Source: Escherichia coli
GTDB lineage: Bacteria > Pseudomonadota > Gammaproteobacteria > Enterobacterales > Enterobacteriaceae
DNA: 64,000 bases
Assembly (NCBI RefSeq): GCF_029227855.1
Contig: NZ_CP074356.1
Reading direction: 5' to 3' (one strand)
Shown here: piece by piece, positions 1,872-54,360 of the stretch
Layout of the letters: each line of letters begins with the position of its first letter
Position numbering within the stretch: position 1 is the stretch's first letter
Notes under the pieces: model-generated
Seen by the model: the letters and a program-made list of their open reading frames with translations, nothing else
Database searches by the model: none
What the model was told of the DNA's origin: nothing
Program-made: the position numbers and the translations under genes

Positions 1872-3647
1872 TTAACGCTTGTACAACGGGCCGTAGTTCT
1901 GGCAAGCGCGGTAATCCTGGCCTTCAATATCCATGCCGTGCGCGGCCCAGGCAGAAGGACGATACACTTTGGTCTCTTCAACGTTGTGCATACATACCGG
2001 GATACGCAGCATGGAGGCAAGAGTGATAAAGTCTGCGCCAACGTGGCCGATGGTCAGAACCCCGTGGTTAGCGCCCCAGTTCGCCATTACCGAGTACACA
2101 TCCGTAAACGGCCCTTTACCGGTGAGGCGCGGTGCAAACCAGGTGGTTGGCCAGGTTGAGTTGGTGCGTTTGTTGAGGATGTCATGCACATCCTTCGGCA
2201 ATTCCACGCTCCAGCCTTCCGCGATTTGCAGTACCGGTCCCAGGCCTTTGATGATGTTGACTCGAGTCATAGTGAACGGGACGCCGCCTTCGGTAAGGAA
2301 GCGAGAAGAGTAACCGCCGCCACGGAAGTATTCGTGGATCGCCGGGCACCATTCGGTAGCGGCGAGGCAAGCGTCAGCCTCTTGCTGAGAGATTTCCCAG
2401 TGCGGCTTCATCGTCGGGTTACCTTCGCTGTCGCGTTGTTTACAGGAACCGTCCAGCGCAGCAGAACCGGAGTTGATCAAATGGATGATGCCGTGTTCTG
2501 CCAGTCCGTCCAGTTTATGCCCCGTTACACGCTCAATTGCTTCTGGTGACCAGTAGGTACGCACATCGGCAAATACCTGAGCGGTACCAGTGAGCTGGTG
2601 GCCCATTAGCATTGCCACGCCGTTAAGACTGTCGTTTTCGGTCGCCACGACAAAGGGTTCGCGCACGCCATTCCAGTCAAATGAACTGTTAAGGATCGCT
2701 TCGGCGGTGTCGCCATTGGGATATTGATCGGTCCAGTGGCGTTGTCCCTGGAAGCCCGCAGCGATGGCGTTGTAGCCAAGTGATTCTTCCACGCGACCAA
2801 TATCGGCCAGTTTGCTGTTGCCTTGCATCATGTCGCGGATACACATCGCCATCAGTAAACTTTCGCGCAGAACTGCGCGGCTTTGCTCGGCATTGCGTTG
2901 ATACTGTTTGTTATTTTCATCTTCGCCATAGCGGAAGTTTTTATCAGCCCAGGCCAGCGCCATTTCCAGTTCGGCTTCGTCGTAAATCTTCTGATCGATA
3001 CGGCGACGCAGTTCGGTCATATCCACCGCCTGGACTTTCATTCCCAGCCAGGATTCAAAGAAGTTGTGATCAACAATGGAACCGGCGATACCCATCGAAA
3101 CGCCGCCCAGCGACAGATAGCTTTTACCTTTCATGCTGGCGACGGCCAAACCGGCGCGGGCAAAGCGCAGCAGTTTTTCTTCAACATCAGCAGGAATCGA
3201 TGTGTCATCGGCATCCTGAACGTCATGACCGTAAATGGAGAATGCCGGGATGCCTTTCTGGCTGTGAGCTGCCAGAGCCGCTGCCAGGTAAACAGCGCCG
3301 GGACGTTCAGTGCCGTTAAAGCCCCAAATGGCTTTCGGGCGGGTTGGATCCATGTCGATGGTTTCACTGCCATAGCACCAGCAAGGCGTTACCGTAATGG
3401 TGAGGCCTACATTCTGACTGCTGAATTTTTCTTCGCAAGCAGCGGCTTCAGCCATACCCGCGATACAGGTATCGGAAATGACACACTCGACGGCAGCTCC
3501 GCAGGCATGGCGCAGTTTCTCGGTCAGCAGTGCGGCCGTGGCTTTCGCCATATTCATTGTTTGTTCTTCAAGCGACTCACGAACACCCATGCGACGACCG
3601 TCAATAACCGGGCGGATACCAATTTTCGGTAAGCTGATTTTTTTCAT
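1872..3647 (-). CDS. fucI: L-fucose isomerase, 591 aa
   Basis: ORF track 591 aa [19 protein letters not shown]...; length and context. Confidence 0.95.
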
Positions 3648-3679
3648 TACTGATTCCTCACTTTATTCGGAAAATATGT

Positions 3680-4996
3680 TCAGTTAGTTGCCGTTTGAGA
3701 ACGGAAACGGGCAAAGATAAAGATGACTGCGAAGCAGAGTGCCGGGATCAGTTCGGCAGTGGGGATGTTGCCCGCTGCGTCACTGACAAACCCCATGACC
3801 GGAGTGACAATACCGCCGCCAATAATGGTCATAACGATGAAGGACGAACCGTATTTGGTGTCCTGGCCGAGATTTTTAATGCCCAGCGAGAAGATTGTTG
3901 GGTACTGAATCGACATAAAGGCACTGCATAAAGTCAGGGCTATTAAGCCCACATGACCGCCAGCGAAGGCTGAGATCAGGCACAGTGCCATAGCGATTAA
4001 TGCGTAGGCGGCCAGGACTTTGTGTGGTGCGAAGCGACTGATGAGCCAGGTACCGGTGAAACGACCAATAAAGAAGCACACCATGGTTCCGGTTAAATAG
4101 TTAGCGGCAAAGCCTGCAGTCATACCTGGAATTTCTTCTACAGCGTAGCGAATCAAATAGCTCCAGCAGGCCGTTTGTGCGCCGACATAGCAGAATTGCG
4201 CTAATACCGCCCAGCGCCAGTGACGAATACGCGCCAGACGAGAAAGCGATGCGGAGAACGATCCTTGTTTGGCGTCACTGTGATTATCACTCTGCAATGC
4301 CGGGAATTTCGTCAGCATGATCAGCAGGGCGACCAGTAACACGATAGCCACGATGATCATATAAGGTGTCTGTACCGATAATACCAGGCTGTGTTTATAC
4401 GCACTCAATTGCTCTGGAGACATTTTATCGAGAACGTCTTGCGATTGATGTGGCACGTTAGACAAAATAAGACTTTGCCCAAAGACAACCGCGATAATTG
4501 CGCCAAATGAGTTAAATGTTTGCGCAAGATTTAAGCGGAAGTGACCACTGCTTTCCGGCCCTAATACCGTAACAAAAGGGTTTGCGGCAGTTTCCAGACA
4601 ACCTAATCCGGCTGCAATAATAAATAGGCCAACTAAAAATAAGGTGTAGTTCATTATTTCTGCAGCGGGCCAGAATAATGCAGCGCCCAAGGCATATAAA
4701 AATAATCCGGTAATAATCCCTGCTTTATAACTGAGTTTTTTCATCAATATCCCGGCAGGGATTGGGATAATGAAATAACCAAAGTAAAAGGCCGATTGGA
4801 TCAGGCCAGCCTGGAAATTTGTCAGCGTAAAAGCCTGCTGGAATTGAGGTAATAAAATGTCGTTAAGGTTATTGGCTACCGCCCAAAGAAAAAACAGTGA
4901 GCACAGCAGCGCGAATGGAATAATGTAACTTCTGCTTTGCCCTGCATCTTTATCTACCGCACGGTAACTCTGCGTTTGTATTGATGTGTTTCCCAT
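3680..4996 (-). CDS. fucP: L-fucose:H+ symporter (MFS), 438 aa
   Basis: ORF track 438 aa, polytopic hydrophobic protein; first gene of fucPIK. Confidence 0.93.
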   Translation of the reverse strand: MGNTSIQTQSYRAVDKDAGQSRSYIIPFALLCSLFFLWAVANNLNDILLPQFQQAFTLTNFQAGLIQSAFYFGYFIIPIPAGILMKKLSYKAGIITGLFLYALGAALFWPAAEIMNYTLFLVGLFIIAAGLGCLETAANPFVTVLGPESSGHFRLNLAQTFNSFGAIIAVVFGQSLILSNVPHQSQDVLDKMSPEQLSAYKHSLVLSVQTPYMIIVAIVLLVALLIMLTKFPALQSDNHSDAKQGSFSASLSRLARIRHWRWAVLAQFCYVGAQTACWSYLIRYAVEEIPGMTAGFAANYLTGTMVCFFIGRFTGTWLISRFAPHKVLAAYALIAMALCLISAFAGGHVGLIALTLCSAFMSIQYPTIFSLGIKNLGQDTKYGSSFIVMTIIGGGIVTPVMGFVSDAAGNIPTAELIPALCFAVIFIFARFRSQTATN

Positions 4997-7420: not shown

Positions 7421-9654
<2,234 letters not shown>

Positions 9655-50383: not shown

Positions 50384-51118
50384 ATGTCCAAACTCGATCT
50401 AAACGCCCTGAACGAACTGCCGAAGGTAGATCGCATTCTGGCGCTGGCAGAAACTAACGCCGAACTGGAAAAACTGGACGCTGAAGGCCGCGTTGCCTGG
50501 GCGCTGGATAATCTGCCCGGTGAATATGTACTTTCTTCCAGTTTCGGCATTCAGGCGGCGGTGAGCCTGCATCTGGTGAATCAGATTCGCCCGGATATTC
50601 CAGTGATCCTCACCGATACGGGTTACTTGTTCCCGGAAACCTACCGCTTTATTGACGAGTTAACGGACAAACTCAAGCTCAACCTGAAAGTGTACCGCGC
50701 TACCGAAAGCGCCGCCTGGCAGGAAGCACGTTACGGAAAACTGTGGGAGCAGGGTGTTGAAGGCATTGAAAAGTACAATGACATCAACAAAGTCGAACCG
50801 ATGAACCGGGCGCTGAAAGAACTGAATGCGCAAACCTGGTTTGCTGGCCTGCGCCGTGAACAATCCGGCAGCCGCACCAATTTACCGGTGCTGGCAATTC
50901 AGCGTGGCGTATTTAAAGTGCTGCCGATTATCGACTGGGATAACCGAACTATTTATCAGTACCTGCAAAAACATGGCCTGAAATATCACCCATTATGGGA
51001 TGAAGGATATTTATCGGTCGGTGATACCCATACAACCCGTAAATGGGAACCCGGCATGGCGGAAGAAGAAACGCGTTTCTTTGGCTTAAAAAGAGAATGT
51101 GGGTTACACGAAGGGTAA
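50384..51118 (+). CDS. cysH: Phosphoadenosine phosphosulfate reductase, 244 aa
   Basis: ORF track 295 aa trimmed to [19 protein letters not shown] (ATG 50384, GAGGA RBS). Confidence 0.94.
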
Positions 51119-51136
51119 ATATTGCCGGATAAATTA

Positions 51137-51175
51137 AACGCCTCTGTCAGAAATGATGGGGGCGTTTTTATTTTG
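51137..51175 (+). terminator. Probable cysJIH terminator: AACGCC ... GGCGTT stem followed by TTTTTATTTT
   Basis: Inverted repeat plus T tract read directly, 20 nt after the cysH stop. Confidence 0.45.
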
Positions 51176-51382
51176 CGAGCAGCATTCCTGATTTTAAACG
51201 TGAACGCCGCTGGAAGAATTATCAGGTATAGAATGGCGTTGGGTGCTTGAGGCTGTCTGGCGTTAAGCATTCGCGAGGTTCCAGATGGACAAAAGCCCCA
51301 GGCGATATTTCTATCAACCTGAGGCCAGCGTTCGAACCTAAGCAATTCGAATGTTAGTCTCTTCTTTGCAGGGAGGCAAGAC

Positions 51383-51535
51383 ATGCTGACAAAATATGCC
51401 CTTGTGGCAATCATCGTACTGTGTTGTACAGTACTGGGATTCACGCTGATGGTAGGCGACTCGTTGTGTGAGTTGAGTATCAGAGAACGTGGTATGGAGT
51501 TTAAGGCAGTTCTCGCTTACGAATCGAAGAAGTAG
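51383..51535 (+). CDS. hokX: Hok/Gef-family type I toxin (hokX-like), 50 aa: [50 protein letters not shown]
   Basis: Below the ORF-track size cutoff; translated by hand: single TM helix then Hok signature SLCEL-IR...G.E..A.LAYES; GGGAGG RBS 6 nt upstream; lies between cysH and cas3 like the K-12 hokX/sokX locus. Confidence 0.8.
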
Positions 51536-51729
51536 CCACCACGCGGGGGTAAAACCCCGCGTATTGAATTGTGATGGTTTGGTCTCCTGCACCCTTTTTT
51601 AATTTATATTGTTTATGTGAATATTATGCCTATGTTTATTATTCATATATATTACGGATGAAAATTATTTGATTATTCATAATGTAAATATTTTATTGAA
51701 CGATATATATCACAGATAATTTTTAATAT
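51536..51729 (+). promoter_or_regulatory. Strongly AT-rich cas3 upstream region (likely cas3 promoter; H-NS-type silencing target)
   Basis: About 190 bp of AT-rich sequence directly before the cas3 start; inference from known H-NS/LeuO control of E. coli cas. Confidence 0.45.
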
Positions 51730-54360
51730 ATGCGTAAATATCCTTTAAGTTTACTGAAGGATAAAAATATTGTGACTTTTTTTGATTTCTGGGGAAAAAC
51801 CCGACGCGGCGAGAAAGACGGGGGCGACGACTATCACCTTCTTTGCTGGCATTCGCTGGATGTAGCCGCGATGGGCTATTTAATGGTTAAAAGCAATTGC
51901 TTCGGGCTGACTGACTATTTTCGTCAACTAGGTTTCGCTGATACGGAGCAGGCAGCACAATTTTTCGCCTGGCTATTGTGCTGGCACGATACTGGAAAAT
52001 TTGCCCGCTCTTTTCAGCAACTTTACCTGCACCCACAACTCAAGGTTCCGGAAGGCGCAAGAAAGAATTACGAAAAGATCTCTCATTCAACGCTGGGCTA
52101 CTGGCTGTGGCATCATTATTTAAGTGAATACGAAGAATTGCTTCCTTCATCTTCACTCTCTCCGCGCAAACTTAAACGGGTGATGGAGATGTGGATGCCC
52201 ATGACTACCGGGCATCATGGTCGGCCCCCTGACCGTATTGATGAACTGGATAATTTTCTGCCTGAAGACAAAGCTGCCGCACGAGATTTTCTCCTTGAAA
52301 TCAAGGTACTGTTTCCGCTCATCGAGATCCCCGCATTCTGGGATGATGACGAGGGCATTGAACTTTTAAAACAACTTTCCTGGTATATCTCTGCAACCGT
52401 CGTACTCGCAGACTGGACGGGATCGTCAACGCGGTTTTTTCCACGCGTTGCACAGGCAATGGATATTAAAGATTACTGGCAGAAGGCTTTAGTTCAGGCT
52501 CAAAACGCCTTAACCGTCTTTCCTCCAAAAGCACAAACCGCGCCTTTCACCGGAATTAATACGCTGTTTCCTTTTATTGAGCACCCGACACCGTTACAGC
52601 AAAAGGTGCTGGATCTGGATATCAGCCAGCCTGGGCCACAGTTATTTATTCTGGAGGATGTGACTGGCGCAGGTAAAACAGAAGCGGCGCTTATCCTGGC
52701 CCACAGGTTGATGGCTGCGGGGAAAGCACAGGGTTTGTTTTTTGGCCTGCCAACAATGGCAACGGCCAATGCCATGTACGATCGGCTGGTAAAAACCTGG
52801 CTTGCTTTCTATTCGCCAGAATCCCGCCCCAGCCTGGTGCTGGCACACAGTGCCCGCACATTAATGGACCGCTTTAATGAATCACTCTGGTCCGGTGATT
52901 TAGTCGGGTCAGAAGAACCGGATGAACAAGCGTTCAGTCAGGGATGTGCGGCCTGGTTTGCCGACAGTAACAAGAAGGCGTTGCTGGCTGAAATTGGCGT
53001 CGGCACGCTGGATCAGGCGATGATGGCGGTGATGCCGTTTAAACATAATAATCTGCGGCTTCTGGGACTGAGTAACAAAATCCTGCTGGCTGATGAGATC
53101 CATGCCTGTGACGCTTACATGTCGTGCATTCTTGAAGGATTGATTGAGCGGCAGGCGCGTGGAGGAAACAGCGTTATTTTGCTTTCTGCCACGTTATCTC
53201 AACAGCAGCGCGACAAACTCGTTGCTGCCTTTGCGCGTGGTGCAGAGGGCCAGCAAGAAGCTCCGTTCCTGGAAAAGGATGATTACCCCTGGCTGACGCA
53301 CGTTACGAAATCGGATGTGCATTCACACCGGGTAGCAGCGCGCAAAGACGTTGAGCGTAGCGTGAGCGTGGGTTGGCTTCATAGCGAACAAGAGTGTATT
53401 GCGCGTATCGAATCGGCGGTAAGTCAGGGGAAATGCATCGCCTGGATCCGGAATTCTGTCGATGATGCTATTAAAGTTTATCGTCAGTTACTTGCCCGCG
53501 GCGTCATTCCTGCTTCCAGCCTTTCTCTTTTTCATAGCCGCTTTGCTTTTAGCGATCGCCAGCGAATTGAAACGGAAACGCTGGCACGCTTTGGTAAAGA
53601 AGATAGCTCACAGCGTGCCGGAAAAGTCCTCATTTGTACTCAGGTCTTAGAGTCGAGCGTTGATTGCGATATGGACGAAATGATTTCCGACCTTGCCCCC
53701 ATTGATTTGCTGATCCAGCGAGCGGGGCGATTACAGCGACATATCCGCGATATTAATGGTCAGTTAAAGCGTGACGGAAAAGACGAGCGTTCCCCTCCTG
53801 AATTGCTGATTCTGGCCCCCGTCTGGGACGACGCTCCAGGTGACGAATGGTTCGGCAGTGCCATGCGTAACAGTGCATATGTCTATCCCGATCATGGACG
53901 AATCTGGCTGACGCAGCGTGTACTGCGTGAGCAAGGCGCTATTCAAATGCCACACGCAGCCCGCCTTCTTATTGAATCAGTCTACGGTGAGGACGTGGTA
54001 ATGCCGGAAGGATTTGCCCGCAGCGAGCAGGAACAAGTGGGCAAATATTACTGCGATCGCGCAATGGCTAAAAAGTTTGTGCTGAACTTTAGGCCCGGCT
54101 ATGCCGCCAATATCAACGATTACCTCCCGGAAAAACTGTCGACACGTCTGGCTGAGGAGTCTGTTTCCCTGTGGCTGGCTACCTGTATTGCCGGTGTGGT
54201 GAAGCCTTATGCCAACGGTGCTCACGCATGGGAAATGAGCGTTGTCAGAGTGCGTCGAAGCTGGTGGAAAAACATCGGGATGAGTTTTCTTTACTGGAAG
54301 GGGAAGCGTTCAGGCAGTGGTGCATTGAACAGCGGAAAGATCCGGAGATGGCAAACGTGA
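51730..54360 (+). CDS. cas3: Cas3 HD nuclease / superfamily 2 helicase (type I-E); ORF ends at 54360 after about 35 low-quality codons, while a protein-like C-terminal segment continues in another frame to 54428 (apparent frameshift near 54240-54262)
   Basis: ORF track 876 aa; HD motif LLCWHDTGKF, Walker A DVTGAGKTEAAL, motif II LLADEIHACD, motif VI QRAGRLQRH; track ORF 54171..54428 carries ...KLVEKHRDEFSLLEGEAFRQWCIEQ... Confidence 0.88.
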   Translation: MRKYPLSLLKDKNIVTFFDFWGKTRRGEKDGGDDYHLLCWHSLDVAAMGYLMVKSNCFGLTDYFRQLGFADTEQAAQFFAWLLCWHDTGKFARSFQQLYLHPQLKVPEGARKNYEKISHSTLGYWLWHHYLSEYEELLPSSSLSPRKLKRVMEMWMPMTTGHHGRPPDRIDELDNFLPEDKAAARDFLLEIKVLFPLIEIPAFWDDDEGIELLKQLSWYISATVVLADWTGSSTRFFPRVAQAMDIKDYWQKALVQAQNALTVFPPKAQTAPFTGINTLFPFIEHPTPLQQKVLDLDISQPGPQLFILEDVTGAGKTEAALILAHRLMAAGKAQGLFFGLPTMATANAMYDRLVKTWLAFYSPESRPSLVLAHSARTLMDRFNESLWSGDLVGSEEPDEQAFSQGCAAWFADSNKKALLAEIGVGTLDQAMMAVMPFKHNNLRLLGLSNKILLADEIHACDAYMSCILEGLIERQARGGNSVILLSATLSQQQRDKLVAAFARGAEGQQEAPFLEKDDYPWLTHVTKSDVHSHRVAARKDVERSVSVGWLHSEQECIARIESAVSQGKCIAWIRNSVDDAIKVYRQLLARGVIPASSLSLFHSRFAFSDRQRIETETLARFGKEDSSQRAGKVLICTQVLESSVDCDMDEMISDLAPIDLLIQRAGRLQRHIRDINGQLKRDGKDERSPPELLILAPVWDDAPGDEWFGSAMRNSAYVYPDHGRIWLTQRVLREQGAIQMPHAARLLIESVYGEDVVMPEGFARSEQEQVGKYYCDRAMAKKFVLNFRPGYAANINDYLPEKLSTRLAEESVSLWLATCIAGVVKPYANGAHAWEMSVVRVRRSWWKNIGMSFLYWKGKRSGSGALNSGKIRRWQT

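Follow-up and report, generated by a model that had tools for sequence, protein, structure and literature searches.

A hokX/sokX type I toxin-antitoxin locus between cysH and cas3 on an Escherichia coli chromosome

RESULTS

The intergenic region between cysH and cas3

We analysed a 64,000-nt stretch of an Escherichia coli chromosome (contig NZ_CP074356.1), referred to below as the window, in which cysI and cysH (stop at 51118) are followed by a 611-bp intergenic region and by cas3 of a type I-E system. A terminator scan placed the intrinsic terminator of cysH on the plus strand at 51136–51177, with a 14-pair stem and then a T-run, which sets the cysH transcript apart from the hok locus downstream. 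Rfam matches to ctRNA_p42d and Spot_42 at 51076–51176 scored far below their gathering scores and merely reflect this terminator hairpin. A sequence-only reading of the same DNA had placed a Hok-family type I toxin locus between cysH and cas3, at 51200–51600. Pfam and Rfam matches, RefSeq annotation, K-12 sokX and the literature all bear this out, and the proposed interval was about right, the locus exceeding it little on either side. With high confidence, we identify the small intergenic gene as hokX of the E. coli chromosomal hokX/sokX type I toxin-antitoxin pair, and the locus is intact in this strain. The locus is already described and annotated, so it is not new: hokX names the hok copy of the cysH–iap region and was initially recognised in E. 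coli B (PMC7232551), and RefSeq names identical DNA in many strains "Hok/Gef family protein" (WP_000956458.1).

The coding part of hokX, from the second hok codon to the mRNA end, was present at 95–100% identity in 4220 of 5426 complete E. coli genomes, with all matches chromosomal, and about 22% of the complete genomes were without it. An intact annotated ORF was found in each of 30 sampled E. coli records. K-12 strains align to the window only up to 51385, at the hok ATG, and carry unrelated sequence beyond; they retain the promoter, the leader and sokX, the hok body being deleted, and from cysH through the hok ATG they are identical to the window except for 5 substitutions. In urinary isolates, hok plus sokX adjoins cysH in 90%, and the remainder carry sokX alone, as K-12 does (PMC12736100). 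Likewise, hok sok was reported in every CRISPR-I arrangement except that with the K-12-type cas variant (PMC3903273). The arrangement in the window is the common, intact form. The locus is nonetheless dispensable, since its coding part is missing from about a fifth of the genomes and some strains carry IS insertions. In strain CH4796, an IS421/IS186-type element (2650–4000 of the extracted locus) sits ~22 nt past the hok stop, between the GC hairpin and the fbi element described below, and resembles the insertions "close to but not in hok" at K-12 hokC and hokE. Strain JMK_KBN3987 has an IS1 within the cysH–cas3 intergenic region.

Copies of the locus in other genomes

With one genome taken per species, scanning for an exact pattern gave 29 loci, and an alignment of 31 hokX/hokE-type mRNAs (the 31 homologs) underlies the conservation figures given below. 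Copies lie 3' of cysH in several Escherichia species and in Kluyvera, Atlantibacter and Pluralibacter. The Klebsiella copy adjoins mutS instead, and that of E. coli N32 adjoins iap. Tandem pairs of hokE- and hokX-type loci, ~0.5–1.2 kb apart, were seen in E. coli SCPM-O-B-8794, Escherichia sp. MOD1-EC7003 and Klebsiella spallanzanii (3882–4749, 8349–9215 and 492–2049 of the extracted loci).

Some records call for caution over their labels. Three genomes labelled Pseudocitrobacter carry an E. coli-like cysH–hokX region, with CysH 97–99.5% identical to that of the window and hokX nearly identical, and one of them also has the cas3 variant of the window; such similarity suggests either mislabelling or recent transfer. 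The 3.3-kb contig JAEWTL010000007.1, from a "Bacillota bacterium" MAG, holds a K-12-type sokX remnant and junction followed by a K-12-type cas3; it almost certainly entered the bin as contaminating E. coli K-12 DNA. A distant blastn search against plasmids did not reach R1-type hok/sok and returned only mis-filed chromosomes, hokE copies and one Klebsiella copy. Several PLSDB records of 4.8–5.4 Mb are chromosomes filed as plasmids, an example being CP125156.1 (5.37 Mb), entered as "Klebsiella pneumoniae plasmid unnamed2". Because the collection holds whole chromosomes, its matches are no evidence of a plasmid-borne hokX locus.

The HokX coding sequence

The hokX coding sequence of 50 codons runs on the plus strand from the ATG at 51383 to the TAG at 51533–51535, and a GGAGG ribosome-binding site (51372–51376) lies 6 nt 5' of the ATG, so that the 50-codon ORF with a good ribosome-binding site recognised from the letters alone is confirmed. 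The Hok signature read at the C-terminus is likewise there. The peptide matches the whole Pfam HOK_GEF model (PF01848): residues 5–46 align with model positions 1–42 of 42 (E 6.3e-10). The best NCBIfam matches were the HokA equivalog NF007290 (53 bits, cutoff 89) and the Hok family subfamily NF007279 (39.5 bits, cutoff 73). As both scores fall under the curated cutoffs, HokX is not HokA and belongs to a separate branch, the hokX/hokE clade, of the wider family.

Members of the Hok/Gef family share a Cys-Glu pair in the periplasmic part and a Cys, or an editable Tyr, near the C-terminus, according to the text of a recent preprint (bioRxiv 10.1101/2025.08.07.668861). HokX encodes C29-E30 and Y46, both invariant among the 31 homologs, and with the UACG at the tyrosine it shows the conserved Cys-Glu plus editable-Tyr pattern of the family. 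The Tyr46 codon (UAC, 51518–51520) lies within UUACGAA (51517–51523, plus strand), which fits the A-to-I editing motif of TadA and is invariant in the 31 homologs. The same preprint reports A-to-I editing at the corresponding position of other Hok mRNAs; by analogy, TadA editing of the UAC would recode Tyr46 of HokX to Cys, a partner of Cys29. The local hairpin around the UACG motif of hokX folds at −1.5 kcal/mol, no better than shuffled sequences.

Substitution patterns were compared with copies from five other genera and within Escherichia, and dN/dS ranged from 0.04 to 0.25. Against the other genera there were 13–20 synonymous and 6–12 non-synonymous differences; Escherichia-type copies differed at 3–7 synonymous and 0–3 non-synonymous positions, despite about three times more non-synonymous sites. 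By this measure the hokX coding sequence is under purifying selection. That the ORF is a chance open frame beside a fortuitous hairpin has its small size in its favour and nothing else; the Pfam and Rfam matches, conservation across genera with low dN/dS and the covarying RNA structure argue against it, and we regard this explanation as practically negligible.

The text of the preprint also bears on toxicity. A peptide identical to HokX was cloned as LRP171 (46_982) for its toxicity screen, in which 42 of 45 cloned homologs were toxic upon arabinose induction, and the three non-toxic exceptions that the text names are sequences other than 46_982 (bioRxiv 10.1101/2025.08.07.668861). As far as that text goes, the toxicity test of the cloned ORF that the sequence-only reading had called for has in effect already been performed.

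The SokX antisense RNA

A Sok-like antisense RNA had been expected on the minus strand within 51280–51380, and K-12 sokX (ncRNA b4701, annotated at 2887353–2887411) maps into this interval by position, as a 59-nt RNA running from 51343 to 51285 on the minus strand. The K-12 sequence and that of the window differ at 2 nt. SokX folds at −22.7 kcal/mol (z = −3.6) into a 5' tail and a terminator hairpin, which is followed by CUUUUGU; the 5' tail is complementary to the loop of the target hairpin in the mRNA. A putative sokX promoter lies at 51379–51351 on the minus strand, with a −35 box TTGCCT (51379–51374), a 17-nt spacer and a −10 box TAACAT (51356–51351). Its −35 box shares bases with the plus-strand hok ribosome-binding site, and the complements of the two boxes, AGGCAA and ATG(T/G)TA, vary little or not at all among the 31 homologs. 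SokX is accordingly predicted to have the features of a cis-antisense Sok RNA, overlapping the leader and having a promoter and a terminator of its own. Expression is hinted at solely by the few reads counted for "sok_15/sokX" in an EHEC RNA-seq table.

The hokX mRNA leader, promoter and ends

Covariance-model search, which had been suggested as a check, gave a match to Rfam RF01794 at 51241–51398 with 111.7 bits against a gathering score of 59 (E 2.2e-26). RF01794 is named "sok antitoxin" but describes the hok-sense strand, its model spanning the leader up to the hok AUG. In K-12 it matches the hokC/mokC strand, opposite the annotated sokC, and it does likewise at the K-12 sokX site. The match therefore marks the leader of the hok mRNA, with the true Sok encoded within it on the other strand.

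A putative −10 box of the hokX promoter, TAGAAT (51229–51234, plus strand), stands 7 nt 5' of the start of the Rfam match. It is identical in the Klebsiella copy, and hokC has TATAAT and hokE TAAGAT; no good −35 box was seen for it. Consensus promoters were scanned for over 51050–51800 with a 9-of-12 threshold, together with terminators. Neither the hok nor the sok promoter was picked up in this interval, as they match at most 8 of 12 positions (8 of 12 for the putative sokX promoter). A promoter-like site inside the hok coding sequence (51386–51414, plus strand) was taken as chance, 2.0 such sites being expected in shuffled sequences.

From homology we infer that the hokX mRNA begins at ~51241, and from the fbi element plus a U6 run that it ends at ~51600, which predicts a full-length plus-strand mRNA of ~360 nt. 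Folding found no local terminator hairpin ahead of the U6 run, so that the position of the 3' end follows only from these elements.

Two conserved folds of the hokX mRNA

The minimum free energy fold of the predicted full-length mRNA pairs its two ends (z = −3.6). The tac element GGGUGCuuGAGGCU at 51241–51254 pairs with the fbi element GGUCUCcuGCACCC at 51581–51594, which is followed by the U6 run (51581–51600 in all, both on the plus strand), with GGGUGC..GAGGCU pairing with GGUCUC..GCACCC. Such tac/fbi end pairing defines hok mRNAs, the mechanism of which is summarised in PMC9841398. Among the 31 homologs the GGGUGC/GCACCC helix is 100% paired and varies only from G-C to G-U. Compensatory changes occur in three other helices of the full-length fold, including the adjacent long-range ones; in the helix of alignment columns 15–22/45–50 and the long-range helix 108–116/334–342, four pairs each have changed on both sides.

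Removal of the last 35 nt gave a different fold, in which the 5' end pairs with itself at 51241–51272. Taken by itself, this 5' hairpin has a folding energy of −17.5 kcal/mol (z = −4.2), and it also shows compensatory changes. The same 3'-truncated fold forms the Sok-target hairpin (GAGGC...GUCUC, loop CCUAAGCAA) at 51321–51361 on the plus strand, where four pairs have undergone compensatory changes among the 31 homologs. Within this hairpin is the GAGG that in R1-type loci serves as the ribosome-binding site of mok. In the alternative fold of 5' and target hairpins, 91% of cells were paired and 7 pairs had changed on both sides across the alignment. Covariation in both the closed and the alternative fold indicates that both states of the switch are conserved. 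The sequence-only reading would have been given up had the region not folded like hok family mRNAs; both the end pairing and the alternative fold are kept in the 31 homologs.

The GC hairpin that had been noted downstream of the ORF lies just past the stop codon on the plus strand, as a perfect 8-bp stem of ACGCGGGG (51541–51548) and CCCCGCGT (51555–51562) around the loop GTAAAA. It was recovered in the predicted folds and is 98.8% paired among the 31 homologs. In the R1 system, toxicity is lost when the last stem-loop of the truncated mRNA is mutated (PMC9841398), and the hairpin at 51541–51562 would be expected to act as the protective 3' hairpin of the processed mRNA.

Upstream ORFs and the start codon of mok

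In R1, mok starts 7 nt past the GAGG in the Sok-target hairpin, and mutation of its start abolishes Hok translation, which needs mok to be translated only as far as the hok ribosome-binding site (PMC9841398). No ATG, GTG or TTG was found 4–10 nt past the GAGG at 51321–51324 in the window, where the sequence reads CCAGCGUUCG. The triplet at the R1 mok-start position is TCG in the window, and TCG or another non-start codon in all Escherichia hokX and hokE copies examined. The arrangement of GAGG, 7 nt and ATG occurs in 9 of the 31 relatives, namely Klebsiella (6), Kluyvera (2) and Pluralibacter (1), and in no Escherichia hokX or hokE copy sampled. In these relatives the R1-type ATG is usually in frame with hok, which makes Mok an N-terminally extended Hok, like K-12 MokC.

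Several upstream frames were considered for the role of mok. The sequence-only reading had pointed to a short upstream ORF, which does exist, with 18 codons on the plus strand from the ATG at 51285–51287 to the TAA at 51339–51341; its label as mok-like is not supported. This ATG-GAC-AAA ORF stops 42 nt 5' of hok, its ATG is absent outside Escherichia (in the Klebsiella, Kluyvera, Atlantibacter and Pluralibacter copies), and it lies opposite the 3' end of SokX, not opposite the 5' end, where the mok start is targeted in R1. It probably does not function as mok. A long TTG frame from mRNA position 7 was rejected as well, having no ribosome-binding site and being interrupted in the window; in E. 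whittamii and some E. coli alleles a 1-nt deletion fuses this frame to hok.

Another upstream ORF, of 12 codons (51351–51389, plus strand), ends in a TGA that overlaps the hok start (AUGCUGA) and is a candidate substitute for mok. Its ATG at 51351 is the one upstream ATG that is invariant in 31 of 31 homologs, and in 30 of them the frame that it opens extends to the hok start or beyond. This invariance, with a frame that reaches hok, makes it the best candidate for a coupling function. The ORF has no ribosome-binding site before its ATG, which doubles as the complement of the sok −10 box, so its role as a substitute for mok is putative. On these sequence comparisons we tentatively suggest, as one possibility, that the Escherichia branch of hokX, together with hokE, has lost the mok start, though its toxin ORF stays under purifying selection, and that Hok translation may be coupled to the 12-codon ORF. 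If true, this coupling would be a stripped-down mok mechanism.

The same comparisons could also mean that the locus is a translationally silent relic, in which the mok start has been lost in Escherichia, HokX is effectively never made and no present function remains. The distribution of the R1-type ATG, kept in 9 of 31 relatives and in no Escherichia copy, is consistent with such a relic, as are the non-toxicity of R1 mok-start mutants (PMC9841398), the inactivity of chromosomal hok loci in post-segregational killing in earlier work and the loss or interruption of the locus in many strains. A silent gene sits poorly, however, with the excess of synonymous (3–7) over non-synonymous (0–3) differences within Escherichia-type copies, with an intact ORF in 30 of 30 sampled records, with maintained RNA switch structures and with an invariant upstream ATG whose frame extends to the hok start in all but one of the 31 copies. 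We consider the relic rather unlikely.

The boundary with cas3

hokX and cas3 (ATG at 51730) are co-directional, and 130 nt separate the end of the hok mRNA from cas3. The AT-rich region that the sequence-only reading had noticed next to cas3 is indeed there, with 16–19% G+C over 51600–51750. Neither the terminator scan nor folding found a canonical intrinsic terminator in 51536–51730, and the sole helix that abuts the U6 run is the long-range tac/fbi helix.

Orientation, the short distance and the want of a canonical terminator between 51536 and 51730 would fit a hokX transcript that, besides its toxin-antitoxin role, reads through into cas3 or modulates its promoter, as would the linkage of hok/sok to one cas variant and its absence with the other (PMC3903273). 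The linkage is explained by module replacement (PMC3903273), however, and K-12 expresses cas3 without the hok body. The fbi element and U6 run also occur in copies with no cas3 downstream, next to mutS in Klebsiella and to iap in E. coli N32, and we give read-through low weight. Judged on sequence, a read-through contribution to cas3 is improbable, and less likely than coupling of HokX translation to the 12-codon ORF.

The cas3 gene itself has an A5 run at ~54268–54272 where strain NRZ88308, with an identical intergenic region, has A6. The cas3 ORF of the window consequently ends at 54360 (876 aa) rather than at the equivalent of 54429 (899 aa), and its C-terminal ~30 residues are out of frame. 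This may be either a real frameshift or a homopolymer sequencing error. In strain CH4796, cas3 is annotated as frameshifted.

DISCUSSION

The plus strand of the hokX/sokX locus carries a predicted mRNA of ~360 nt that encodes HokX, a membrane toxin of 50 aa, and the minus strand carries the 59-nt SokX. A model of how the two would act can be drawn by analogy with R1. Pairing of tac with fbi would close the full-length mRNA, which would then be shut off from both translation and Sok binding. Trimming of the 3' end to the GC hairpin at 51541–51562, a slow step, would let the 5' end refold as its own hairpin and thereby expose the Sok-target hairpin at 51321–51361. SokX would pair with this hairpin and the duplex would be destroyed; once SokX was exhausted, HokX would be made and the inner membrane damaged. 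As the mok position has no start codon, ribosomes would load on hok either via the 12-codon ORF (51351–51389) that ends on the hok start or very inefficiently. The text of the preprint states that chromosomal hok loci tested earlier gave no post-segregational killing (bioRxiv 10.1101/2025.08.07.668861).

Beyond correct annotation, the locus is of little importance in itself. It serves as a marker of E. coli CRISPR-I arrangements, since it accompanies the non-K-12 cas variant and is missing where the K-12 variant has come in. Bench work might be worthwhile only on how HokX is translated without a canonical mok start, on whether TadA edits Tyr46 to Cys, as reported for related Hok mRNAs, and on whether the hokX transcript ends before the H-NS-type AT-rich promoter region of cas3.

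Comparison with known hok loci

The plasmid R1 hok/sok system and hokX share the Hok/Gef family, the same Rfam leader model, tac/fbi end pairing, the GAGG in the Sok-target hairpin, a sok −35 box over the hok ribosome-binding site and the GC hairpin past the stop. No R1 sequence was among the blastn results, so this comparison draws on the Rfam model and on PMC9841398. Unlike R1, hokX is chromosomal and syntenic across genera, with DNA similarity too low for blastn; it lacks the 70-codon mok as well as any start codon where mok would begin, and its U6 run follows fbi directly, with no separate downstream terminator hairpin seen. Post-segregational killing by hokX is not expected.

K-12 hokC/mokC/sokC resembles hokX in matching the same Rfam family on the hok-sense strand and in having a sokC that is also annotated at 59 nt. 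MokC consists of HokC extended in frame at its N-terminus, and the mok of the Klebsiella hokX copies is built in the same way, whereas Escherichia hokX is without the mok ATG, and the two peptides are only distantly alike.

The closest DNA paralog is hokE, with ~79% identity over the leader and coding sequence and ~80% identical peptides. It has the leader architecture and the Tyr46 UACG motif of hokX, and likewise no R1-type mok start. Unlike hokX, it occupies another site, near ybdK, and its tac/fbi pairing joins GGGUGCC to GGCACC; the upstream ATG of hokE shares the hok frame and gives an N-terminally extended product, where hokX has the separate 12-codon ORF.

At the sokX site of K-12, everything after the hok ATG has been lost, and IS insertions are found at hokX in E. 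coli B and in some further strains; in both respects the window strain has the intact form. There is no difference of substance between the window and the known hokX/sokX of E. coli, which occupies the same cysH–cas3/iap site and encodes the same protein.
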